A DNA stretch of 64,000 nt from Planctomycetota bacterium (GTDB lineage Bacteria; Planctomycetota; Planctomycetia; Pirellulales; Pirellulaceae): NCBI GenBank assembly GCA_039189905.1, contig JBCCYK010000003.1, positions 13,813 to 77,812 on the forward strand, written 5' to 3'. This document shows positions 2,797 to 31,353 of this stretch, one piece after another. Each line of letters opens with the position of its first letter. The first letter of the stretch is position 1. A model generated the notes under the pieces. That model was not told where the DNA came from. It did not search any database and saw nothing but the letters and a program-made list of their open reading frames with translations. A program made the translations under genes and the position numbers.

Positions 2797-4713
2797 TCAA
2801 ATGCGGGCCGACTCGTTGCGCAACCACAGTTCCAACACCAGAAGATTCCACAAGCGATAGCCCTCACTCTGCTCACCTGACTCGTGACGTCGAACCAACT
2901 CGGAGATCGGCTCGCGTCGCAGAATCGACTGCAAAGGTGAATCATCGGCCAACAAAGTATCATGCACCAGCGGCTTGAACTCGTTTCGAAACCAGTCGTG
3001 GATGGGAATCCCAAACCCCATTTTTTGACGCGTGAAGATGTTCGACGGGATGCGGTTGCCAAATGTGTCTTGCAGCAAGAGCTTGCCACGCCCGCCGCGA
3101 AACTTCAGGCTGATTGGCAAGGAAGCCGCAAACTCCACCACGCGGTAGTCCAGCATCGGCTGGCGGACTTCCAAGCCATGCGCCATGGATGCGATGTCCA
3201 CCTTGGTCATCAAGTCGCACACCAAGTACGACTGCAGATCCAACAGCGAAGCGCGCGTCGCGAGATCACGCCCCGCACTTCGCTTCCAAATCTGATCCAA
3301 GAAATCAACCGGGTCGCTGTCCGGCAACGTTTCGACAAACTCATCCGTGTAGAGACGGGCACGCATCGTTTCCGAAAAGATCTGCAACCAATTCAAATAG
3401 CGTCTCAACGGATCCTGATCCAGCGCTTCGAGGAAGCGTTTGGCGCGCCGCAGGATCGAGTAACGGCGATTCGAATTGGGAATGCGTTGCACCAGACCAA
3501 TCCCGGGCAATCGGTGGAGGGGTAACCGGCGACGCAGACGATCACTCAACCAAAGTGCCCGATAGCGGTCGTATCCGGCGAACAATTCGTCGCCGCCGTC
3601 ACCCGACAAAGCCACGGTGACGTCTCTGCGTGTCAACTCAGACAGGTACCAGGTTGGCATCGCAGAACTGTCGCCGTACGGCTCATCGTATTGCTCCACC
3701 AAACGATCGATGATTCCGATGGCGTCGGGTGTGACCTCAAAGCGAGTGTGCTGGGTTTGCAAGTGCTCCGCAACTTGAGCCGCGTAGGCAGTCTCGTCAA
3801 AGTCGGCAATGGGAAACCCAATGCTAAAAGTTCGCAACGTCTGTTCGGTCGCATCTTGTGCAAGTGCCGTGATCAGGGAGGAATCGATCCCTCCCGAAAG
3901 AAACGCACCCAGAGGCACGTCGCTTCTCATACGCAGCCGGACGGAATCCTCCAACAGCTCCTGCAGCTTCTCGATCGCGTCGCCCTTCTCGATGGCGATC
4001 TCGCGAGACGGATCAAAGTGCCAATAATTCTGAACCTGCAAACCCGATCGATCAAATACCGCCATGTGCCCTGGCGGCAGTTTCTTCACACCCTGATAGA
4101 TCGTGCCGGGATGTGGCACGTATTGATACAGCAGGAACTCATCAATGGCTGCGGGATCGATCTGCTCACAGACACCCGGCACTCGCTTGAGTGACTTCAG
4201 TTCGCTCGCAAAGACAAGGCGATCATCCTTCAAGCAGTAATGCAGCGGCTTCTGCCCGATACGATCACGTGCCAACACAAGACGATGACGATTGGAATCC
4301 CAGATCGCGACAGCCAACATGCCGTTGAGTTGTTGAAAGCAGTCGAGTCCAAGATCCTCATACAGATGCAGGATGGTTTCGCCATCACCGTCCGTCTTGA
4401 AACGATGGCCGCTTCCCTCCAAGCGACGACGCAGAACGGGGTAGTTGTAAATCTCCCCGTTGAAGACCATGTGGATGCTGTCATCTTCATTCGACAGCGG
4501 CTGGCGCGCCCCCTCGACATCGATGATCGACAACCTGCGAAAACCGAGACCGACGCCACAGACATGACCCGACGCGTCCCGATGCTCCGGATCCATCCAG
4601 ATCTGAGCATCATCGGGCCCCCGATGCGAAATGGCCTCCGTCATCGACCGCAAAAGACTGGCATCCACGCGGCGACGGTCGTCATGCCAAACCGCGCCCG
4701 CGATGCCGCACAT
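2797..4713 (-). CDS. asnB: asparagine synthase (glutamine-hydrolysing)
   Basis: Canonical N-terminus MCGIAG (Cys2 nucleophile) at 4713; the longer ORF reaching 4833 is probably an upstream extension. The PP-loop SGGIDSS is present. Length is about 638 aa. Confidence 0.9.
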   Translation of the reverse strand: MCGIAGAVWHDDRRRVDASLLRSMTEAISHRGPDDAQIWMDPEHRDASGHVCGVGLGFRRLSIIDVEGARQPLSNEDDSIHMVFNGEIYNYPVLRRRLEGSGHRFKTDGDGETILHLYEDLGLDCFQQLNGMLAVAIWDSNRHRLVLARDRIGQKPLHYCLKDDRLVFASELKSLKRVPGVCEQIDPAAIDEFLLYQYVPHPGTIYQGVKKLPPGHMAVFDRSGLQVQNYWHFDPSREIAIEKGDAIEKLQELLEDSVRLRMRSDVPLGAFLSGGIDSSLITALAQDATEQTLRTFSIGFPIADFDETAYAAQVAEHLQTQHTRFEVTPDAIGIIDRLVEQYDEPYGDSSAMPTWYLSELTRRDVTVALSGDGGDELFAGYDRYRALWLSDRLRRRLPLHRLPGIGLVQRIPNSNRRYSILRRAKRFLEALDQDPLRRYLNWLQIFSETMRARLYTDEFVETLPDSDPVDFLDQIWKRSAGRDLATRASLLDLQSYLVCDLMTKVDIASMAHGLEVRQPMLDYRVVEFAASLPISLKFRGGRGKLLLQDTFGNRIPSNIFTRQKMGFGIPIHDWFRNEFKPLVHDTLLADDSPLQSILRREPISELVRRHESGEQSEGYRLWNLLVLELWLRNESARI

Positions 4714-20330: not shown

Positions 20331-20525
20331 CTTCAAGGGCTGTCGGGCGGCCTCGGTCAGCGAATTTTCCTGGCCCCGGGCCTCAGTCAGAAGCTCCCCG
20401 GCCGGCGACCGGTCGTTGCGTCGGGCATTTTCTTCGCTCCCGCGTTGACGGTATGAGAAACTCCCCAGGTGGGTAGTTACGATGACTGTTTCGAGTCACT
20501 CCCCGTCGGTCTTGGCCTGGGAATC

Positions 20526-23201
20526 ATGAACAAGGCGTTACTCTCCCTGCTTTTACAGGCGCTGCTCTTGACCACCCTTTCCGCGGTGGATTGCCACGCT
20601 GACTACAAGAATCTCCTCTTCAAGGGCACGACGCGAGACGAAGTTCGAGATTTGTACGATCAATACGTCGCCAAGATCCTGAAAGCGCCACGCGGTGAAG
20701 GGTCATCGGTGCTCGAAGCCCTGGCGGGAGGCAAGGACTTCAAGCAGTCGTTCCTCCTCGCCTGCGTTTCAAACGGATGGCCTGTCCGAGCAGTTGATCT
20801 GGATCGTCAGAACGCGCCGCCAAGTGGAACCTGGGCCTACACCGAGGAAGACTACGGCGGGATCGTCAGGCAGTTTCCAAGCGATTGCAATGACATGCAC
20901 TGCATGGACATCGCTTCGGTACGCGGCTTCCAAGTGAAGTCGCTGTTATTGGGCACCGAGGTTCGGGCAACGCTTTACACCCAGGACGGGTTCCGTGGAA
21001 AAAGCATCCAAACCAATGATTCGTGCCCCGTTCTCGAGATTCCACTGCAGTCGATGCGTCTCCGCCATGCTCCGCGAATCGACTACGTGACCATCAGCGA
21101 CTATGAGACCAACGAGGGGCGTGCCAGTTTTAGACTGCATGTCAGTGGTGCCAATATTGATGACGGGGCGACTCTTCTAGTCGACAAGGCGAAGACCGAC
21201 TCGGAGATCGAAGTGCGCCTCGATAACTCGAGTTGGCTCGGACTGGGAAAGGACGCGGCGCAGGCCGGTTACAACCTGGACCCAACCTTCTACGCCTTTC
21301 CCGTGCTTCACTACGATTCCATTGTTGCCGCCCAAGTAGGCATTCCCTTTGGCCAAACGATCTCGATCGAAGTCCACAACTCAATGGGGCAGGTTTCGAA
21401 CACGTTGCTCTACGAGATCCCAAGCCCAGACAAGCTTGATAGCGATGGCGATGGCCTGCTGGACGCCTGGGAAACCTGCGGCGTGGATGGTCTTGATCTC
21501 GTCGCGTTGGGTGCCAACCCACATCGCAAGGACGTCTATGTTGAGGTCGACCGCATGGTGGTGCCGGGTCGCATTTGGTCCGATTTTTCGGAGACGGACT
21601 ATCCAAGCGAGACCACGTTTGTGGAGTCCGTGCGTTCCTATGCCGCCGCTCCGGTCATCAACCCGGACCGGTCGACCGGCATTGCCTTGCACATCGACTA
21701 TGGCCAAGAAAAGTTTGAGAAGGCAGCCAAGTCGGAAGGTGGAACGGAGATCCCTTGGAGACGCTTTTTGGGATACAAGCGATCGGACGATTTTCGGCGT
21801 AAGTACCCAGAATACTACGACGCTGTCGAGCTCCGAAACGACCCGGCATTCTTTCCACGCTCGCGATCGAGGGTGTTTCGCTATTGCGTGTTCGGAGATC
21901 AACAGTGGTCCAGCCGATCAACGGGCGGTGGAAATTTCGAGTCGACGTTCTTTCTCACGCTGGGCATCTCTCGGATGAACGCCGTGAAACCAAGTTACCA
22001 GACAGGTGTCTTCTTGCATGAGTTGGGCCACATGTTTGGCCTGTCCCACCAAGGAAGCGGGAAGGCCTACAACTACAAGCCCAACTTCAACAGCGTGATG
22101 AACTATCAATTCGTCTTTGAAGGCTGTGACATGGATGGAAAACTGGGTGGTGGCATGCGCGACGAGGTTCCAGGTGACCAAGTCTATTCCTATTCCGAAG
22201 GGATGCGTGCGAAGCTGGATGAAGGGGCCTTGAGGGAAGTGCTCGGGGTGGCCAATCACTACCCACATGATTGGAACGGCGACGGCGTCATCAACAACGA
22301 CCCCGTCAAGGCAATCATCTCCAAGCACCGGCAAACGAGTCAGCCGAGAATCTTGAGAGACTCCGCAGATTGGGCCAAGATGAAGTTCAAGCAGCTTGAC
22401 GACCCCAAGATTGTCGCGCGTGACGCGCCGCCGCAACGTGCACAACAGCCAATTCGGGATGTCGCCCGAGTGCCTCGCGGCGTGGATATCGGATTCAAGT
22501 GCGAAGTGGGAGGCATCATCCAGACCGGTCACTGGAAAGTTGTTGGCACGGTGACCGCCCATGAGCCAGGCAAGGTCACTTTCCGAACGGAGCCGTTTCG
22601 TGTTCGAGACAAAGTTCGCACGGAAGCAAAAACGGGGCATCTCGCCTACCAACTACCGGAAGACCTGCTGATCCCGGTGCAGGTTGGCGATCCCATCACC
22701 ATTCTGCACGACGATCCGAGGAAACCAGAAGGCCTGCAAAAACACATTCACATCGCGTCCGGCAAACAGTTGATTCTTGCGACGTCACGCTTGGGCGAAA
22801 CGCGGGTGCCGAGATCGGCGGATCGGGCTGAGCTGTTGTGTCAGGGACTTCCGGCGGGACGGGTGATCTTCTACTGGTCTGACCCGGATGATGATGACCG
22901 CGAGCAGCCCTTGAAAGAGATGCCCCCAATGCCTTCGGCTGCCACGATCACGGCTCAGATCGATTCGCAGCCTGATTTTGTGGAACGCGCAAGAAAGGGT
23001 TATCAACCCATCAAGCTGGGAAAAACGGGGTACCTGTTCCGGATCTTGGACAAAATGCAGCAGCATGGTGACGCGAAAGTTCGAGATGCTCCTGAGGATT
23101 CCGGGGCACGGACGAATGACGGCTTGGAACGCTTTAGCTCGGATGGACAGCCTGACGCAATAGGCTTGTTGATCAGGTCGATGGAAGCAGATCCCCAATG
23201 A
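20526..23201 (+). CDS. secreted multidomain zinc metalloprotease (metzincin-type HExxHxxGxxH)
   Basis: Signal peptide MNKALLSLLLQALLLTTLSAVDC. Also has a Ca-binding-like DSDGDGLLDAWE motif, the zinc site HELGHMFGLSH, and a ~330-aa C-terminal region with no recognisable motifs. Confidence 0.75.
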   Translation: MNKALLSLLLQALLLTTLSAVDCHADYKNLLFKGTTRDEVRDLYDQYVAKILKAPRGEGSSVLEALAGGKDFKQSFLLACVSNGWPVRAVDLDRQNAPPSGTWAYTEEDYGGIVRQFPSDCNDMHCMDIASVRGFQVKSLLLGTEVRATLYTQDGFRGKSIQTNDSCPVLEIPLQSMRLRHAPRIDYVTISDYETNEGRASFRLHVSGANIDDGATLLVDKAKTDSEIEVRLDNSSWLGLGKDAAQAGYNLDPTFYAFPVLHYDSIVAAQVGIPFGQTISIEVHNSMGQVSNTLLYEIPSPDKLDSDGDGLLDAWETCGVDGLDLVALGANPHRKDVYVEVDRMVVPGRIWSDFSETDYPSETTFVESVRSYAAAPVINPDRSTGIALHIDYGQEKFEKAAKSEGGTEIPWRRFLGYKRSDDFRRKYPEYYDAVELRNDPAFFPRSRSRVFRYCVFGDQQWSSRSTGGGNFESTFFLTLGISRMNAVKPSYQTGVFLHELGHMFGLSHQGSGKAYNYKPNFNSVMNYQFVFEGCDMDGKLGGGMRDEVPGDQVYSYSEGMRAKLDEGALREVLGVANHYPHDWNGDGVINNDPVKAIISKHRQTSQPRILRDSADWAKMKFKQLDDPKIVARDAPPQRAQQPIRDVARVPRGVDIGFKCEVGGIIQTGHWKVVGTVTAHEPGKVTFRTEPFRVRDKVRTEAKTGHLAYQLPEDLLIPVQVGDPITILHDDPRKPEGLQKHIHIASGKQLILATSRLGETRVPRSADRAELLCQGLPAGRVIFYWSDPDDDDREQPLKEMPPMPSAATITAQIDSQPDFVERARKGYQPIKLGKTGYLFRILDKMQQHGDAKVRDAPEDSGARTNDGLERFSSDGQPDAIGLLIRSMEADPQ

Positions 23202-24333
23202 ATTGGTCGGCGTATCGGGCATTGACCGCGCGGGCGTGATCCCAAATCGTGCTTGTGGTCCCGATGTGTTGCACCAAGCTAGGTGAGGGAAAAATCAGCG
23301 GGATGTCCTGTTCTTTCGCGATCTGGCCGAGCACGACGTCGATCTTTGAGAGCCCGTCCCGTCCCGGCTGGCTCCGATGCGCCAGCAAGGCGGGCGAAGT
23401 CAGGATCTGCTTCACGGCCGCGTTGGAAAAGACAAAGGCAACCGCACCCCAAACCCAGCTTTCAGGAAAAAGGTGCCATCCAGCCGTGCTTTGGTTGTAT
23501 TTCTTGGAACAGTAAAGGGAGGCCATGCAGGGTCCATCCCATGGCCATAGCACACGTTCCAGGTAGTGCTTGGTCGCGTCAGAGGGAACAAAGACGGCAT
23601 CATCCTGGATGAGCATGAATGCGTCGGCGTGCGGGCGACGCATGTAGAGTTCTGATAGGGACAGGAAGTAGTTTGGAAACGCACCGAGGGCCGGTGTGCG
23701 GTGACAGAAGTTCAGTGAGGAAAAAGCTTCCGGAATGGCGACTTCTCCGTCCAAGAACAAAACGGGGTCCTTCCATCCAGCTTGAATCACAGATTCCGCG
23801 CACGATTGCAGCGTTGGCAGCCTGCGCGGCGCCGTCGTGATGCCTACCGACCAATTTCGAACGTGTCCTTGCGGATGCGACGTTGACTCTGCTGGGATGG
23901 GCAGAACACGTTCAATGTCATCGGCAACGATCCCCGCGAGATGTCCGTACTGCTTCCGCGCGGAGTCCTGTGTGTCATCCTCGTCAAAACTCACGGCCGG
24001 CAAACACTTCTCAGCCCAAGCACCTAGCTTGGCGGCTTTCTCGACGGAGCAACTCGGGGTTCCGTTTTCGCGTACGATCCTTTCAGCCAGACCGACCAGT
24101 AACGAAGCAACGATCGAGTTGGGGTGTGTCTTACTGGGCTTATGAGATTGACAACAAGCCTGGCACGCGGCCAGCGGCACCGTCAATGCCGGATGTTCAT
24201 CGACCCCGCAGATTTCAGCCAGCAAGCCGCAGATGGCGGTTTCGCTGTCCGCGGCAAGTCCCTTGCCAGGGACCTTTAGCAAAGGCTTGCGGAAAACGCA
24301 GGCCTCAACGCTCCCTATCTCAGTCTTGACCAT
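23173..24333 (-). CDS. GT-A-fold glycosyltransferase-like protein with N-terminal 5-Cys domain
   Basis: N-terminal pattern C-x-FR, CGLL, C, CxxC. The GT-A-like core is WSVGITTAPRRLPTL followed by LIQDDAVFVP (DxD-like). The ATG at 24333 is preferred to the GTG at 24390 because it aligns with the paralogous N-terminus of the 24776 gene. Confidence 0.6.
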   Translation of the reverse strand: MVKTEIGSVEACVFRKPLLKVPGKGLAADSETAICGLLAEICGVDEHPALTVPLAACQACCQSHKPSKTHPNSIVASLLVGLAERIVRENGTPSCSVEKAAKLGAWAEKCLPAVSFDEDDTQDSARKQYGHLAGIVADDIERVLPIPAESTSHPQGHVRNWSVGITTAPRRLPTLQSCAESVIQAGWKDPVLFLDGEVAIPEAFSSLNFCHRTPALGAFPNYFLSLSELYMRRPHADAFMLIQDDAVFVPSDATKHYLERVLWPWDGPCMASLYCSKKYNQSTAGWHLFPESWVWGAVAFVFSNAAVKQILTSPALLAHRSQPGRDGLSKIDVVLGQIAKEQDIPLIFPSPSLVQHIGTTSTIWDHARAVNARYADQFIGDLLPST

Positions 24334-24370
24334 CCGAGAAAGAAACCCAGAAGACTCCGCGGCCACACGA

Positions 24371-24397
24371 ACGGGGTGCGAAACACGCACACCCCGT
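24371..24397 (-). terminator. intercistronic GC-rich hairpin (possible attenuator or partial terminator)
   Basis: Minus-strand ACGGGGUG-(11 nt)-CACCCCGU forms a perfect 8-bp stem, with alternative inner pairing GUGCG/CGCAC. It lies 36 nt after the stop of the 83-codon ORF and 38 nt before the glycosyltransferase ATG. There is no clean U-tract. Confidence 0.35.
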
Positions 24398-24432
24398 GAA
24401 CGAGATCAACCGAATCAGGACGCCAGGCAGTC

Positions 24433-24684
24433 CTAGCTCGCCAAAACACAAGAAGTGGCCCGAAGCTGCCCGTCAAACTCGCCTGGAACAGTCGGTGGCA
24501 GGCTCGCCATCGCACCTTCGACGGGACAGTCTTTCTTGATATGCCACTGCGCACCATCATAGCGCCACAAAGTATAGCCGAGCCCCTCAGGTCCACTGGA
24601 TTGCTTTGGTTCTCCGGCATTGCGAGCGCCAGTCATATTTCGAACGGTTGCCCTTTGCATGAAATCCCTCACTTCGTTAGGCAT
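24433..24684 (-). CDS. small hypothetical protein (83 aa)
   Basis: ATG-initiated ORF directly downstream of an AT-rich divergent intergenic region. The sequence is protein-like (GYTLWRYDGAQWHIKKDCPVEG, TSCVLAS). The overlapping alternative-frame ORF 24315-24620 looks like junk. No homology is recognisable by eye. Confidence 0.4.
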   Translation of the reverse strand: MPNEVRDFMQRATVRNMTGARNAGEPKQSSGPEGLGYTLWRYDGAQWHIKKDCPVEGAMASLPPTVPGEFDGQLRATSCVLAS

Positions 24685-24775
24685 AAATGATGTAGACTCT
24701 CAAACTTAAAGATTCGCCCCAGGGCATAGTTTACCGTCTTTTGCTGTATGCCGAAACTCGGCGTCCCAATGATTT

Positions 24776-26578
24776 ATGACGCTGGATATCTCCTGTAAGT
24801 TTCGCCACAGCCTCCGTGCGTCTGACGGTCACGAGAAGGCGACATGCGGTTTGCTCCAAAAGTTACTGCTAGAACACCCAGATGACCCAGACAGCACTTG
24901 TGAGGTCAAGCGAGATGCTTGTATCGCCTGCAGTCGGTCACGACCCGTCGTCAGTGATCTGATCGGCGGGCCATTTGCCTCCATACTCAGCAATGCATGC
25001 GAGCGGAAACTACAACGGTTGGCGGTTGGTACAGCGAACTTTCAACATGTCTCGACATTAAATCAGATCGCCGACCAAGCGGTCCTTTCTCCTAACGGTT
25101 TGAAGCGCGCAGTCACCTGTGATGTCATTGTCTGGTGTGGATCACGATCATCTGCATCCCATCGGTCGATTAACAGCGTCCTCAATCAGTTGCTCGCCGA
25201 AACAACCGTTCACATCATCATCCCCGAATCAATAGAGGCTCGTTCCAGCGCACACGACGAGGAACTAGCGTCTCATTTCGGCTCCCGGTATGACGTTCGA
25301 ATCCACCGACTAAAGCATGTGATGACGCCTCTGCAGGCGGTTCACGAACTTGCTCCGAAACTACGAAGCGAGTTTATCGCGTTGCAAGATGCGGCGGCGA
25401 CTTCACTTCCCAAGCGGATTGAGTCAGCCATTAATGAGTTACGCAGACACGGAGCAGACTTTATCGGTTCACCGCTGGGCACGATTTTTGGCGACATCGA
25501 CGTTCCGGCGGACCCCGGTTCCAGGTTCGAACCTTCCATCCCGTGGCCCACCCTCGTCTTTCGTCGAGCCACGTTCCTGGATCTTGGGGGCGTTTCCGAT
25601 CGCAAAGAGGACGCTGACATCGAACTCCTTTATCGAGCGCACGCCTGCGGGGCAAAAATCGTTTCAATGCCTTGGGCAACCGTCCAGTTAGATCGACCGT
25701 GGGAACCTGCTAAATGTGAGGCAAAACCTGACTATTCAATGCGGTTTGGATCGCTACGTCACCACGCTTTGGGTTTCCCCAAAGTGACTGTCGCATGCGA
25801 CGTCGTCCTGCCCATTTATGGCCAACTTGATTATGTACGCCCCGCCCTTGAAAGCATCATGGAACAAGAGGATGCGGAAGCGATTGTCCACCTTGTGGAC
25901 GACTGCGGTCCCGAAGACGTGTCCGAACTTTTTCGCTACTGGGGAAGCCATCCAAGGGTTCGGCTGTATCGCAACCAGCGCAATCTGGGCCAGTACACGT
26001 CGTTCAACAATGTTTCGGATTTCTTTGAGACCGAACTCGTTGCGATTCAAGACGGCGATGACATCAGCTTGCCGCATCGCTTATCCGTCAGTGGCAATCT
26101 CTTAGAACTGGCCGACGGAGATTACTTTGCAGCCACGATGGAGCAGTTTGGAACGGCGGATGCTTTGCCCAATCGTCGGTCGAGATTCCCACAGGGGGCT
26201 CCTTCTGCCAACTACTTTGCAATGAACCCGACAGCTTGTTTTCGGGTCGCAATGTTCCGATCGCTTGGTGGGTTCGCGGATTACGGGGCTCATGAGCGCA
26301 ACCGTTGTGGCCTAGACACTGAGTTCATGAACCGCGCGTACCATTGCGAGCGGAGGTTTGCTGTGTCGACTTCCGTGGTCACACGGCACCGCATTCATGC
26401 GGCGGCCGCGACGCAGCGATCCGACACGGGTTTCGGTTCGCTGTTGCGAAATCAGGCTGACATGGAAGCACGACGGCGTATCGACCTGCTGCGAAACTCC
26501 CGGATGGATCCTCGGTACTTTGGTGGCCTGGGCAATCACCGCAGCCTGACGCAACGTTTGATGCCGGGCGCGTCTTAG
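24776..26578 (+). CDS. tandem GT2-family glycosyltransferase with N-terminal 5-Cys domain
   Basis: The N-terminus (ISCKFRHSL, ATCGLL, STCEV, DACIAC) is paralogous to the 23173-24333 protein. The first GT2-like module is degenerate (IALQDAAATSLPKRI). The second is canonical (DVVLPIYGQLDYV, VHLVDDCGPED, AIQDGDDISLPHRL). Confidence 0.75.
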   Translation: MTLDISCKFRHSLRASDGHEKATCGLLQKLLLEHPDDPDSTCEVKRDACIACSRSRPVVSDLIGGPFASILSNACERKLQRLAVGTANFQHVSTLNQIADQAVLSPNGLKRAVTCDVIVWCGSRSSASHRSINSVLNQLLAETTVHIIIPESIEARSSAHDEELASHFGSRYDVRIHRLKHVMTPLQAVHELAPKLRSEFIALQDAAATSLPKRIESAINELRRHGADFIGSPLGTIFGDIDVPADPGSRFEPSIPWPTLVFRRATFLDLGGVSDRKEDADIELLYRAHACGAKIVSMPWATVQLDRPWEPAKCEAKPDYSMRFGSLRHHALGFPKVTVACDVVLPIYGQLDYVRPALESIMEQEDAEAIVHLVDDCGPEDVSELFRYWGSHPRVRLYRNQRNLGQYTSFNNVSDFFETELVAIQDGDDISLPHRLSVSGNLLELADGDYFAATMEQFGTADALPNRRSRFPQGAPSANYFAMNPTACFRVAMFRSLGGFADYGAHERNRCGLDTEFMNRAYHCERRFAVSTSVVTRHRIHAAAATQRSDTGFGSLLRNQADMEARRRIDLLRNSRMDPRYFGGLGNHRSLTQRLMPGAS

Positions 26579-29500
26579 TGGTCGTTGTCGTTTGCAGCGG
26601 TGGGATGCGAACGGAATAGTCGAAAACCGTAGAAACTTCGTGAAGAGCCCGGCTCGGACCACCCCAGATAGCGAGGTTCTGTGCTTTCTCCTTCAAGACT
26701 TACACGAAAGTCAAACCCACAAAGCTGATTCCGGGTTGCATCGCCTGGGTCAATGTCATTGGCCCACTCGCGCACATTGAGATACATGTCGAAAATCCCG
26801 AAGCCGTTGGGGCGGGCGGCACCCACCGACCAAGAGCCTGCCCGGTCTGCCTCCCAGGAAAGTGCGTAACCGACATGCAGACCGTCCGTGATCGGTCCCG
26901 GACCACCTGATCCACTCCCGAAGGAGTAATCCGTGATCGCACCGCTGGAGCAGGCGAAGAACCACTCCTCGGCCATGGGAAGACGATATCCTGTGCGACT
27001 TCGGTAATCAGGGTAGATCCGAGCTGGTGGATCGTTCGGATTCTGTCGATCTGGATAGCAGAGTTGGTCGTCGGCGAGCCCTTCTTGTTTGGAGAGCCAG
27101 TTGCAGAATGCGACACACTCGTGATACGTAACATTGCCGGCCGCGACGCGGTCCTTGACGCCCGACCATTTGAACTCCTTAACACCGTCTCTTCGCCAAG
27201 TCTTCAGTTGCCCCAACGTGGTCTCGGCCGCCGCGATTTCGATGCGATACCTGTCCTCAGCTTCATGTTGAGGCAGTCGCACCATGGTCTGACCAATCGA
27301 GTTGACATACCAATCGGCCGCATCGTCGCGCAACTGACTCTTGGATTCAAACTGCTCGTTGGCCCAGTGCCCTTGATTCCACCGCTGCAGCAACCAATAG
27401 GCGTTCCCTCGTAGGACTGCCGTGGGGGCACTGAGAATCCAGCCTTTTGACAAAGTGATGACTTGTTCTCGGAGGCTCGCGTCCACCTCGGAGGGATCGA
27501 ACTCTCCCAGGACCTGGATCAAACCGCACTGCATCCGGAGATCCTGCTCGACAAGCAACTTCCTGGCCATCGGAGTCGGATCCGCCTGGAAGAGTCTGGC
27601 ACGTTGTACCAATCGCGTTCTTGCGTTCGGGATGGTGGTCCGACCGAAAGTGACCTCACGATAGCGCTGACTCAACGACTCAAAGCCGCCTTCTTCATTG
27701 AGTCGCGTCCAATGCTTCGACGGCAGGAGGCGTCGCAGCTCCGAACGAATCCAGTCCTCTGACTCTTCCATTTGCGCGGAACCCGTGGAGTCGGGTACTA
27801 AGACGGCCCAGACGTCCGCTGTGGTGATGTCGTGGCGAAGCAGGAGGGCTGCTGCTGTTGCCTTCCGCAAGGCAACCAGGATCCAACCCTCATCCCTCAA
27901 ACGGACGGGTTTTTGAATCGCTGTTTCTAGAACAGGCCGCACATTTTCGAAATGTTTGTCAATCAAGTCCTGCGATGCGAGGATCTGTTCCACGTCGGCA
28001 CCCAACAAGATGTCAACATACTCCGGAACGCGTTGCTCAAGCAGGCGGACCAACAGGTCCTGAGCCGCCGACTTCCGGAGCGTCCGGCCAACGGAATCCC
28101 CCGAGATCATGGCACTTGCAAGCGGATCGATCAGCGGGTCGACGGCTGGTTGTACCAGCTCCACCATCTGACTGAAGCTGGTCCGGTCAATGTTGGCAAA
28201 GTGAATGAGTTCTTCGGCAGCAAATGCGGCGTGTTCTCGCCAACGCTCATTGATTAGGTCATCGCCGCCCGGTGGATCGAGTTGGGCAAGTGCCATCAAG
28301 GCATTGAGCCGAGGATGATACGGCCGCCCCATTGGGTTGGTGGCCCGTTGCAGCGTCGTGTCACCGGCACACTTCCAGAGATAGTTGACCCATGCCGACC
28401 GTTGCGGCCTCAACTCGTTGCAAAGGACCCACAGAGTCTCAGGATCGCTCCGAAGAAGCGCTGGCTGGATCGTGGCGGCTTCCTCCTCGACCGCGGTGTG
28501 CTCGATCCGCCGCAATGCGAGGCTTGAGAAAAGGTGCCTGTTGGTCCCCGGTGGGTTTTGAACCCGGATGGACTTGAGTGGTTTCAAACTCCAATGACCA
28601 CGCTTCTCCAACGCGTCGAGTAGCCCGCTCAGCCCGCTTGGTTCCGCCACTTCGAGTTGCTGCGCCAGCGATCTGGCATGATTCCATCGTAAGAACTCAC
28701 GACAGCCAAAGACGCACACGAGGATCAAAACTGCAGTGGCCACCAAGAACCGTCCATGCCTTCGACCGGCGCTCCCCATCATTCCGGATTCAGTCTCGTT
28801 CCAACGGCTCTTGCTCGTAAACGCGTGGATTGCGATCCACTCGGTGATCGTTGGAAGGTGCCTTGGCTCGGGGCGCGTCCCCCAGACCTCGGCACGCTGA
28901 GCCAACCGCAGTTCAGCCTGCCCTCGCCGTGTTCCTCGCTGCATCCGGGATTGCCATTCGCGAATCGCAGGCACCAGATAGTCGTGTGCAAGCTGATAAA
29001 ACTCATCTTGAACGACATCAACCGCTTGAGGGCTGGAAAACGATCCGGACTGGCTAGTCGAGTTATCCCCGCGACCGCCTTGCGTTGTTCGGGTGATGAG
29101 GTGGAGGTCGTTATCCAACGTGCGAATAAGCGATTGGAACTGCTTGGGTTGAGCGGCATATCCGGAAATGGCGAGCAACTCTTCGTGGGAACGCATGTGC
29201 CCTTTGAGATTGGTCCCCGGCTGGGGCAATAAGGACCCCAGTGTCTCGTAGACCGCTTGAAGATGCACGGCATGTTCGGCGGGCGCGTTGGGGGACGAGA
29301 AGTTCTCCTCCAGGAACAGCACACCGACGCCTTTGGTTCCTCCAATTTGCTTCAGCGTTGCCGTGCTCCACGGGCGGGACTTGATCATTTCGGCGAACAA
29401 CGCGATCCGAACGGGGATCACTTTCCCATTCTCGGCCAGCCCGGCAATGGCCTGCTCGATGAACGCACGTTCGTCGCGGCTGAGGTCCGATGGGTTTTTG

Positions 29501-31353
29501 GGCAACCTTGCGAACGCTCGGCCAAATTCTCGAAGGACCATTCTGGCATGCTTGATATCAAACAAGTCGATCATCGCCATGTTGTGATTTTGAAGCAGAT
29601 CGATTTCCACGTGCTCCATCAAACGGCTGAACGCAAGCCAAAAATCATCACGAACGAGCAGGATGCATTGAACATGCTCGCCATCGCATTGCCGAAGCGC
29701 CTTGGCCAGCTCGGAGTGCTCGGGTTGTTGCGTGGAGTAGAGCCACTGTTCGAACTGATCGATGATGAGGAGTATCTTTGTCCCTTCGCCCATCACGTTC
29801 TGGTGTCGAAGGGCCGCAATGGACTCGCGAAGTCCCAGTTCCGTATCCAGATAAGGGCACTTGCGGCGGATTCGATTGACCAGCCGCAACTCCGTGGCGT
29901 CGGGGGCCGCTTCAATAAAAATCGGCAGCACGTTGTCCTGAAGGCTTGGAATCAAGCCCGCTTTGCAGAAGGAACTCTTGCCGCAGCCGGAAGGTCCATA
30001 GATAAGCCCCACGCGAAAGGTGTTCTCGGGATCGCGTTCTTCGATGCGACGTTTCCAGACAAGGATTGACTCGGGCATGCCGTCCCGGTCATAGGGGCCG
30101 GGAAGCAAGTCCGTGAAGAAGTGGGCGTCCTGAGTGCCAAAGGATCGAAGACCACGCGGGACCAGTCCCGTCGCTCGGCGATTGGATCTTGAGTTTTCTG
30201 CAGGCATTGCCTCGCTGGGAGCTTCCGTAGCCTCAGCAGAAAAAACGGCTTCGTGCTCAGAGTAGTCTTGCTTCGGATCGGATAGCAAGAACCGTAAATC
30301 CTTCGCGAGGTTGAGTCCGGTTGCATGACGAGCACTGCTTCGTTTGGCAAGCGTTTTCAAGCAGATGCGTTCCAACTCCGGACTCACTTCGGGATTCAAC
30401 TCGCTGGGCGGCTGCGCGTCCTGTTCCTCGATCATCCGCAAGACTGAGTGGGATGTGCTTCCTGCAAACGGCCGCTTGCCGGTGATCAGTTCGTAAAGAA
30501 CGACCCCAAGACTAAAGAGGTCCGATCGCCCCGTCACCAAATGGTTTTCCCCCCGCGCCTGTTCTGGGCTCATATACGCGGGGGTGCCCGCAATTCGGCT
30601 TGTGCGGGCGGCGTCCTCTTCTAACAAGGCGAGCCCAAAGTCGGCCAGGTAGGCCGTGCCTCTCTTATCGAGCAGGATGTTACTTGGTTTGATGTCACGA
30701 TGAATGACGCCCATGCTGTGGACGTAGTGAAGCGCCTCGGCGAGCGTGGCAACCAATTCAATGACCTGCGAAACCTGCAGACGACATTGTTTGTTTCTTT
30801 GATAGAGATCACTCCCATCGATGTAGCGCGAAACGATGAAGCAGATTCCATCGTCGGTGTGCCCGACGTCGTGGACGGGTACCACGTGGGGATGCTCCAG
30901 CTTTGCCAAGGTGCGCGCTTCGGTTAGGAACGCATGGACCTGTTTTGAGCTGGCCACACGGTGCGCGTGTGGGATCTTGATCGTGACTTTGCGCTGAAGC
31001 TCATCGTCCCACGCCAGGTAGACGCGACCGAAGCCGCCTTCCCCCAAGAGTTTCTCTACCTGATATCGCCCAATGAAGTCGCGGTCGGGCTCGACGATCA
31101 GCCCGAGCGAACTGTTTGACGATCCGGGGGAACCTGCCGTTCGGGTCGCGTTTTCATTGCGTGTGACGCGTTCGTTGCGTGTGACGAGCGAATGGGGACG
31201 CTCGCTATCTCTCTTTGTCAGGTCTGACCGGTCTGTGGCCCCCGTACTTTCTGGCGGAAACTCTCCAGGCTGGGTGCGTTTCTCCGTTGGCTCGGCATGG
31301 GGTTGTTTTTCGTTGTTTTGGCCTGACATCAATCCGATCGTTTCCTCGTCCAC
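26575..31353 (-). CDS. Ser/Thr protein kinase - P-loop (STAND-like) NTPase - TM - helical repeats - FGE/SUMF1-like domain fusion protein
   Basis: Kinase motifs (about nt 30286-31068): GEGGFGRVY, VTIK, HRDIKPSNILL, DFG, TPAYMSPE. Walker A GPSGCGKSS and Walker B LLIIDQFEQ lie at about nt 29254-30036. A single TM segment (FLVATAVLILVCVFG) lies at about nt 28702-28752. The C-terminal ~245 aa (nt 26578-27312) carry FGE-sulfatase hallmarks (YRLPMAEEW, NVREWAND, FYGFRLFRS). Confidence 0.85.
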   Translation of the reverse strand: MDEETIGLMSGQNNEKQPHAEPTEKRTQPGEFPPESTGATDRSDLTKRDSERPHSLVTRNERVTRNENATRTAGSPGSSNSSLGLIVEPDRDFIGRYQVEKLLGEGGFGRVYLAWDDELQRKVTIKIPHAHRVASSKQVHAFLTEARTLAKLEHPHVVPVHDVGHTDDGICFIVSRYIDGSDLYQRNKQCRLQVSQVIELVATLAEALHYVHSMGVIHRDIKPSNILLDKRGTAYLADFGLALLEEDAARTSRIAGTPAYMSPEQARGENHLVTGRSDLFSLGVVLYELITGKRPFAGSTSHSVLRMIEEQDAQPPSELNPEVSPELERICLKTLAKRSSARHATGLNLAKDLRFLLSDPKQDYSEHEAVFSAEATEAPSEAMPAENSRSNRRATGLVPRGLRSFGTQDAHFFTDLLPGPYDRDGMPESILVWKRRIEERDPENTFRVGLIYGPSGCGKSSFCKAGLIPSLQDNVLPIFIEAAPDATELRLVNRIRRKCPYLDTELGLRESIAALRHQNVMGEGTKILLIIDQFEQWLYSTQQPEHSELAKALRQCDGEHVQCILLVRDDFWLAFSRLMEHVEIDLLQNHNMAMIDLFDIKHARMVLREFGRAFARLPKNPSDLSRDERAFIEQAIAGLAENGKVIPVRIALFAEMIKSRPWSTATLKQIGGTKGVGVLFLEENFSSPNAPAEHAVHLQAVYETLGSLLPQPGTNLKGHMRSHEELLAISGYAAQPKQFQSLIRTLDNDLHLITRTTQGGRGDNSTSQSGSFSSPQAVDVVQDEFYQLAHDYLVPAIREWQSRMQRGTRRGQAELRLAQRAEVWGTRPEPRHLPTITEWIAIHAFTSKSRWNETESGMMGSAGRRHGRFLVATAVLILVCVFGCREFLRWNHARSLAQQLEVAEPSGLSGLLDALEKRGHWSLKPLKSIRVQNPPGTNRHLFSSLALRRIEHTAVEEEAATIQPALLRSDPETLWVLCNELRPQRSAWVNYLWKCAGDTTLQRATNPMGRPYHPRLNALMALAQLDPPGGDDLINERWREHAAFAAEELIHFANIDRTSFSQMVELVQPAVDPLIDPLASAMISGDSVGRTLRKSAAQDLLVRLLEQRVPEYVDILLGADVEQILASQDLIDKHFENVRPVLETAIQKPVRLRDEGWILVALRKATAAALLLRHDITTADVWAVLVPDSTGSAQMEESEDWIRSELRRLLPSKHWTRLNEEGGFESLSQRYREVTFGRTTIPNARTRLVQRARLFQADPTPMARKLLVEQDLRMQCGLIQVLGEFDPSEVDASLREQVITLSKGWILSAPTAVLRGNAYWLLQRWNQGHWANEQFESKSQLRDDAADWYVNSIGQTMVRLPQHEAEDRYRIEIAAAETTLGQLKTWRRDGVKEFKWSGVKDRVAAGNVTYHECVAFCNWLSKQEGLADDQLCYPDRQNPNDPPARIYPDYRSRTGYRLPMAEEWFFACSSGAITDYSFGSGSGGPGPITDGLHVGYALSWEADRAGSWSVGAARPNGFGIFDMYLNVREWANDIDPGDATRNQLCGFDFRVSLEGESTEPRYLGWSEPGSSRSFYGFRLFRSHPTAANDNDH

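Follow-up and report, generated by a model that had tools for sequence, protein, structure and literature searches.

A planctomycetal locus encoding two enzymes with a related N-terminus

The DNA analysed here, referred to as the window, is a 64,000 nt stretch from a Planctomycetota bacterium of the family Pirellulaceae (assembly GCA_039189905.1, contig JBCCYK010000003.1, positions 13,813 to 77,812 of the forward strand), and all coordinates below are numbered from its first letter. Within it, an earlier reading of the sequence alone (the original prediction) had drawn attention to two proteins on opposite strands, which we call A (23173-24333, minus strand, 386 aa, starting with an ATG at 24333) and B (24776-26578, plus strand, 600 aa), and had suggested that both are glycosyltransferases (GTs) that begin with a common Cys-rich module. 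Using a map of the open reading frames (ORFs) and their translations we confirmed both ORFs and found every quoted motif to be present. Here we describe the shared module as a new and well-delimited domain family, termed Ndom, which belongs to an undescribed but conserved three-part cluster together with a small protein, S, encoded between A and B, and, in most cases, a large kinase protein, and we infer a mechanism by which these parts could act together.

The ORF of A can be extended upstream to a GTG at 24390, and alignment with homologues favours the ATG as the start. Public gene calls across 23173-26578 appear to be mis-started, with A called as 405 aa from the GTG, S as 67 aa compared with 75 aa in homologues, and B as 418 aa despite homologues of ~600 aa that match the whole ORF.

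A and B share a four-cysteine domain without a known fold match

A single pairwise comparison of the A and B N-termini using BLASTP gave 26% identity with E=2e-4, and an hhalign comparison of two profiles, one made from 87 N-termini of the A family and the other from 80 of the B family, gave a match over 99 columns with a probability of 100% and E=4.5e-40. The similarity proposed in the original prediction therefore stays far beyond chance in both pairwise and profile alignment, and the A and B N-termini are homologous and represent one shared domain. The low pairwise identity could be taken as a sign of fortuitous resemblance between Cys-rich, low-complexity sequences, but this is as good as impossible given the profile-profile score, the recovery of 267 sequence clusters at E≤1e-10 (see below) and the N-terminal motifs of distant B-family members, which are almost indistinguishable from those of the A family.

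Ndom spans about 100 residues (A residues ~9-110) rather than the ~55 first supposed. In A it occupies 23968-24333 on the minus strand, with a hidden Markov model (HMM) match at 23968-24306 (E=1e-31) and a start supported by homologues, and in B it occupies 24776-25090 on the plus strand, with an HMM match at 24788-25090 (E=9e-23). In a diverse set of 51 sequences from the two families, the only invariant residues are C12, R15, C35, C57 and C60 (numbered as in A), with a cysteine spacing of C-x22-C-x21-C-x2-C. The five-Cys pattern that had been described for both proteins was thus partly coincidental, as only four of the cysteines are homologous and the supposed third is not: C42 of A (EICGV) is not conserved, while the Cys in the STCEV motif of B aligns with Leu50 of A, a position that is Cys in 27 of the 51 sequences. 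Further semi-conserved cysteines occur at positions 50, 61 and 95 (27-29 of 51 sequences). We also observed an acidic linker directly after Ndom (LPAV-x-x-DEDD; A residues ~105-115, in the region of 23990-24020), which is strongly conserved in the A family and not in the B family.

The AlphaFold2 model of Ndom is confident and compact (predicted local distance difference test score, pLDDT, 90.7; predicted template modelling score 0.82) and shows an alpha/beta arrangement of three short strands and four helices, with the CxxC motif opening the second helix and two long C-terminal helices forming part of the domain. No amphipathic or transmembrane (TM) segment was seen in its predicted secondary structure. 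Ndom had been put forward as a module outside the named families and this holds: there was no match in Pfam, NCBIfam or PADLOC, no relative among PDB sequences (best profile E=0.45), and no fold match when the model was searched with Foldseek against PDB and BFVD (best E=1.4 and 1.2, respectively; TM-score <0.4). Likewise, no similarity was found to known Fe-S or thioredoxin-like families, and a known zinc-ribbon or zinc-finger family was rejected on the same sequence and fold searches despite the four conserved putative ligand residues. A CxxC at a helix N-terminus, and this cysteine spacing, are more typical of structural Zn sites than of Fe-S or redox sites, and the predicted architecture points to a structural metal site of the Cys4 type.

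Ndom is carried by many unrelated carbohydrate-active enzymes

We searched 1.84 billion representative proteins exhaustively with the Ndom HMM and recovered 355 clusters at E≤1e-3, with many enzyme types among them, so the domain is not private to the two genes of the window as had been thought. It is almost always N-terminal but sometimes lies between two enzyme domains, and its fusion partners are ten or more unrelated enzyme domains, of which almost all are carbohydrate-active. These include the catalytic-type domain of A (Acat), single and double GT2 modules, Glycos_transf_1/GT4 and GT34-like domains, in addition to Methyltransf_24, Polysacc_deac_1, a sulfotransferase (Sulfotransfer_3), GT_PLOD and CAP59 mannosyltransferase domains. 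Ndom therefore marks enzymes that build or tailor glycans and are unrelated in fold, and these occur in Planctomycetota and some Verrucomicrobiota. At three of the loci described below it is followed by an unnamed domain of ~260 aa with an LRYGDGEW motif and no Pfam match (L030:2714-3838, L048:2659-3732 and L066:621-1709).

The A family has 179 relatives, all annotated as hypothetical and none with a Pfam domain, while the 116 relatives in the B family are about 600 aa long and carry a GT2 annotation. Relatives of both come from Planctomycetota and are often found on the same contigs.

B has one intact and one degenerate GT2 module, and A an unnamed catalytic-type domain

In B, Ndom is followed by two tandem paralogous GT2 modules (module 1, 25103-25780; module 2, 25784-26578; both plus strand), which match one another in hhalign with a probability of 99.9% and E=1.3e-33 over 204 columns. 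Module 2 is a standard intact GT2 module of the GT-A type by sequence, with a match to PF00535 at residues 343-469 (E=2.7e-16; 60.4 bits against a cutoff of 23.3), a family HMM match of E=3e-122, and a DxD motif, VAIQDGDDISLP, that is kept in the family profile. Module 1 reaches only 19.2 bits (E=1.3e-3) against the Pfam GT2 model, which is under the same cutoff. Its QDAAAT aligns with QDGDDIS of module 2, in agreement with the earlier view that its DxD is degenerate, and its HIIIPES aligns with HLVDDCG. As it has lost both the DxD and the upstream nucleotide-binding Asp, module 1 is likely to be catalytically dead.

The C-terminal ~230 aa of A form Acat (23173-23865, minus strand), which was delimited by alignment and HMM (E=3e-118). 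No match was found in Pfam, NCBIfam or PDB with the single sequence, with 24 family members, or with a 32-sequence profile, and comparison with both GT2 modules of B using hhalign showed no similarity (E=0.1-0.35). In the 32-sequence alignment the invariant residues are R14, G30, D88, D89, W107, S116, G129, P195, S196 and H200 (domain numbering), where D88 and D89 form part of a QDD motif. A QDD-type acidic motif and a C-terminal His are found in many GT-A enzymes, in which the acidic DxD-type motif follows a hydrophobic strand, and D88/D89 and H200 may be GT-A-like hallmarks at the level of motifs. The QD motifs of the original prediction were present as described (IQDD in A, QDAAAT and QDGDD in B). 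A matches no named glycosyltransferase family, and its assignment as a putative glycosyltransferase would be based on the DD and the C-terminal His, both invariant, and on the genes that surround it.

A small protein precedes the first Ndom gene

Conservation of the locus was assessed in 80 loci collected by a profile scan with one genome per species; a scan with the single A protein alone gave none. The hosts are Pirellulales, Planctomycetales, Isosphaerales, Thermoguttaceae and some Verrucomicrobiales, and six-frame HMM annotation showed one to four Ndom genes per locus, in tandem. The Ndom enzymes are co-encoded in an operon-like cluster that is opened by S and usually lies beside a kinase-nSTAND1-FGS gene.

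In the window, S is encoded on the minus strand at 24433-24660 (75 aa from an ATG supported by homologues, within an ORF that reaches 24684), between A and B and co-directional with A. A divergent promoter shared directly by A and B, as originally proposed, is thus not what lies here, since S intervenes on the strand of A and the divergent pair is S and B. The intergenic region between these two (24661-24775) contained no sigma-70-like consensus, although such a scan is uninformative for this phylum.

Using tblastn and an HMM in all six frames, we located S in at least 60 of the 80 loci, where it directly precedes the first Ndom gene on the same strand at a median distance of 78 nt; several other loci have divergent S-like ORFs. 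This bears out the suggestion that homologues of these enzymes flank a small ORF. At a locus of the complete Thalassoglobus polymorphus genome that was reached without A as the seed, S again lies upstream of a B homologue. Locus L017 has two tandem copies of S (3199-3312 and 3702-3821).

The S family comprises 69 members with no annotation and no Pfam domain, and no known family was found in Pfam, NCBIfam, PADLOC or PDB sequences. S of the window has a disordered N-terminus, and what the family conserves is a C-terminal core of ~45 aa with the pattern G-Y-x-L-W-x-Y-x-G-x-x-W ... P-P-x-x-P-G-x-F-x-G-Q, which AlphaFold2 predicts as three strands and a Pro/Gly-rich loop (pLDDT 82-91), with no match in a Foldseek fold search. 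In 52 of the 69 homologues the N-terminus is a hydrophobic helix followed by K/R, while S from the window has no N-terminal TM helix. As the hydrophobic helix precedes basic residues, the core of the TM-bearing forms is predicted to be in the cytoplasm (N-out/C-in). The Ndom enzymes have no signal sequence and would hence be cytoplasmic, like the predicted core of S.

A kinase-nSTAND1-FGS gene adjoins the cluster

Downstream of B, and convergent with it, the window encodes a 1592-aa protein (26575-31353, minus strand; 4-nt overlap with B) with an N-terminal Ser/Thr kinase (Pkinase, E=1.6e-50), an nSTAND1 (E=2.8e-17) and a C-terminal FGE-sulfatase domain (FGS; E=3e-12) in Pfam; the last two are separated by about 600 unassigned residues. 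By tblastn, synteny of the kinase gene extends to 57 of the 80 loci, where it is usually directly upstream of S and on the same strand; in the lineage of the window, B is inverted and sits between the kinase gene and S. Some loci with S and the enzymes have no kinase within 9 kb. The Ndom HMM detected no copy of Ndom in the kinase ORF of the window or of any of the 80 loci. PADLOC matches to the kinase were rejected as evidence for defence, as these arise only via the generic kinase domain. Furthermore, no conserved flippase, exporter or transporter, priming transferase, sugar-nucleotide or protease gene was found in the 80 loci.

At locus L082 (5241-15280) a B homologue is immediately followed by genes for a caspase (Peptidase_C14) and a CHAT-nSTAND1 protein, and the latter is a second, different nSTAND1 neighbour for an Ndom enzyme. 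Another locus, L007 (2153 bp), is binned as "Synechococcales cyanobacterium" but its translated S and A matches are identical to those of a Pirellula metagenome-assembled genome contig (L008), and its cyanobacterial assignment is probably a binning error. On the other side of A in the window, a 910-aa protein (20469-23201, plus strand) has a HELGH metalloprotease motif and weak Reprolysin/M66 matches. Its gene overlaps that of A by 29 nt, 3' end to 3' end, and is kept beside A in five close relatives only. In a look-up for expression data, the database runs that contained the sequence were DNA only, from a marine metagenome.

Proposed role of Ndom

The original prediction suggested a metal- or redox-dependent, or a substrate-recruiting, function for the shared module, and of these the recruiting role is the best fit to the genomic context. 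We tentatively propose, at slightly less than even chance, that Ndom serves for docking and is stabilised by a metal, so that glycan-tailoring enzymes are brought one after another to a partner that they have in common, S being the most likely. In this scheme the four cysteines would hold a structural metal, most likely Zn, and Ndom would dock otherwise unrelated enzymes (GT-A, GT-B, methyltransferase, deacetylase and sulfotransferase) on one partner, where they could act in succession on the same acceptor. Both partner and acceptor would most likely be the cytoplasmic C-terminal core of S, which would thereby become a small glycoprotein that is membrane-anchored in most lineages and soluble in the lineage of the window. 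B would supply one active and one inactive GT2 module, and the system's core transferase may be the unnamed DD...H domain of A. As partner and acceptor, S is the candidate that asks for the fewest assumptions, given where it lies in the cluster, how nearly universal it is, its predicted cytoplasmic core and the absence of lipid-carrier genes from the loci, while a lipid-linked polysaccharide pathway is disfavoured because none of the flippase, exporter, priming transferase or sugar-nucleotide genes is conserved.

Several observations weigh against docking on S. The two contacts at its centre, of Ndom with S and of Ndom with metal, are purely inferred, and the sequence of A's catalytic domain does not demonstrate a glycosyltransferase. 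Because the A family served as the seed for the 80 loci, A is bound to co-occur in them. A clear S is missing from about a quarter of the loci, and the B homologue in L082 has no detectable S. No Ser, Thr, Tyr, Asn or Cys, and hence no nucleophilic residue, is invariant among the S sequences, and the invariant W, P and G look structural. A mirror-tree analysis of distance matrices revealed no co-evolution specific to S and Ndom, as the partial correlation was r=0.16, which is below the 0.33 for S with the catalytic domain. Lastly, no true fusion of S to Ndom was found, and P0401 looks like a frameshift artefact.

The partner of Ndom may instead lie elsewhere. Docking of the enzymes to each other or to the kinase-nSTAND1-FGS protein as a scaffold, with S as a regulator, membrane anchor or kinase substrate rather than the acceptor, would build a complex of several enzymes and would account for the synteny of the kinase gene in 57 of 80 loci, usually co-directional and immediately upstream of S, and could make use of the ~600 unassigned residues between its nSTAND1 and FGS domains; the B homologue that adjoins a CHAT-nSTAND1 protein points the same way, and the TM-anchored forms of S could serve as a membrane recruiter. 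However, no kinase ORF has a copy of Ndom, which makes a homotypic adaptor principle inapplicable, the kinase is missing within 9 kb of some loci with S and the enzymes, and S of the window has no TM helix, so we regard this arrangement as unlikely. Binding of Ndom to a shared non-protein target, such as a lipid carrier, membrane surface, nucleotide or nucleic acid, with S and the kinase as unrelated neighbours, is more doubtful still. The invariant Arg near the first Cys could contact phosphate, but such binding is at odds with how closely S is linked to the first Ndom gene throughout the phylum, with the lack of lipid-carrier pathway genes in the loci, and with a predicted Ndom structure that offers no amphipathic or TM segment.

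Equally improbable is that the four cysteines bind an Fe-S cluster or form a redox site, such that Ndom would sense redox state or metal and turn the enzymes joined to it on or off. This was an idea of the original prediction itself, and four invariant cysteines together with the semi-conserved ones at positions 50, 61 and 95 would suit it. Nonetheless, the sequence and fold searches gave no similar Fe-S or thioredoxin-like family, the cysteine spacing and the CxxC at a helix N-terminus are more typical of structural Zn, and a sensor leaves unexplained why every enzyme of the operon, whatever its chemistry, bears Ndom.

Returning to docking on S, a wider scheme can be drawn in which the cluster would be an undescribed cytoplasmic protein glycosylation system of Planctomycetota-Verrucomicrobiota-Chlamydiota bacteria, where the new-fold Cys4 domain would recruit a varying complement of glycosyltransferases and glycan-tailoring enzymes to the acceptor S, and the adjacent kinase-nSTAND1 protein would write, read or regulate the resulting glycoprotein, bound by its lectin-fold FGS domain. 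As a whole, we think this rather unlikely. If recruitment by Ndom to a small acceptor is true, it would represent a new route of bacterial protein glycosylation and a portable docking tag for glycan-tailoring enzymes. At a minimum, the analysis yields a new domain family, confidently modelled and delimited in its phyletic range, that is ready for curation. Three linked families, the Cys4 domain, S and Acat, had no name, solved relative or description in the literature searched, and the cluster that holds them is conserved across several orders of Planctomycetota and reaches Verrucomicrobiota. Searches of the literature for the system or its locus tags gave nothing relevant.

Comparison with known systems

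As in zinc ribbons and treble clefs, Ndom is small and has four invariant cysteines with a CxxC at a helix N-terminus, but its ligand pattern is 1+1+2 rather than two knuckles and it ends in two long helices. At the level of concept only, it also resembles dockerin/cohesin and Alg13/Alg14, in which a common module or a small anchor gathers soluble carbohydrate-active enzymes. Dockerin/cohesin systems are extracellular and Alg13/Alg14 belongs to the eukaryotic endoplasmic reticulum, there is no homology with either, and the partner of Ndom is only proposed.

A closer parallel in organisation is found in the biosynthesis of peptides that are ribosomally synthesised and then modified after translation (RiPPs), where the RiPP recognition element (RRE), a small PqqD-like winged-helix domain, is repeated on unrelated tailoring enzymes that cluster with an upstream precursor peptide. 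Likewise, a small domain is found here on several unrelated enzymes, with the gene for a small protein immediately upstream. However, Ndom is a Cys4 alpha/beta domain and not a winged helix-turn-helix, with no Pfam or fold match, and S is conserved in a folded C-terminal core, unlike precursors with a conserved leader and variable core. Membership of the RiPP systems was rejected, as there is no PqqD-like domain, S is not a precursor of the leader/core kind, and neither a protease nor a transporter is conserved in the 80 loci.

Glycocin systems of Firmicutes pair GT2 S/O-glycosyltransferases such as SunS and GccA with a small precursor, together with export/protease and thiol-disulfide genes. 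The present cluster similarly places a GT2 enzyme gene beside a small presumed acceptor, but it differs in having several enzymes of different folds, an S that is often TM-anchored, and a STAND kinase. The glycocin GT2 enzymes are not known to carry Ndom. A glycocin assignment was also rejected, since there is no leader/core precursor and no conserved protease or exporter.

The neighbouring 1592-aa protein, with its N-terminal kinase, nSTAND1 and C-terminal FGS domains, has the NTPase-FGS architecture, of kinase, STAND NTPase and C-terminal FGS, that was described computationally by Kaur, Burroughs, Iyer and Aravind (PMC8195603). GT domains are treated there as effectors, and an effector-associated domain (EAD) is defined by its presence on the effectors and, in a further copy, on the STAND NTPase itself. 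Neither S nor the Cys4 domain, nor a link of these with the kinase-nSTAND1-FGS protein, was found in the passages of that paper that were consulted or in our literature searches. On that definition, Ndom was rejected as an EAD, as it never occurs on the kinase-STAND ORFs and no Pfam EAD model matches it. It nevertheless resembles an EAD in being a small adaptor-like domain common to several enzymes of one neighbourhood, and a link between S, the Ndom enzymes and the kinase-STAND-FGS protein would supply a testable ligand hypothesis for the sensors of "conflict systems" known only from computational work.

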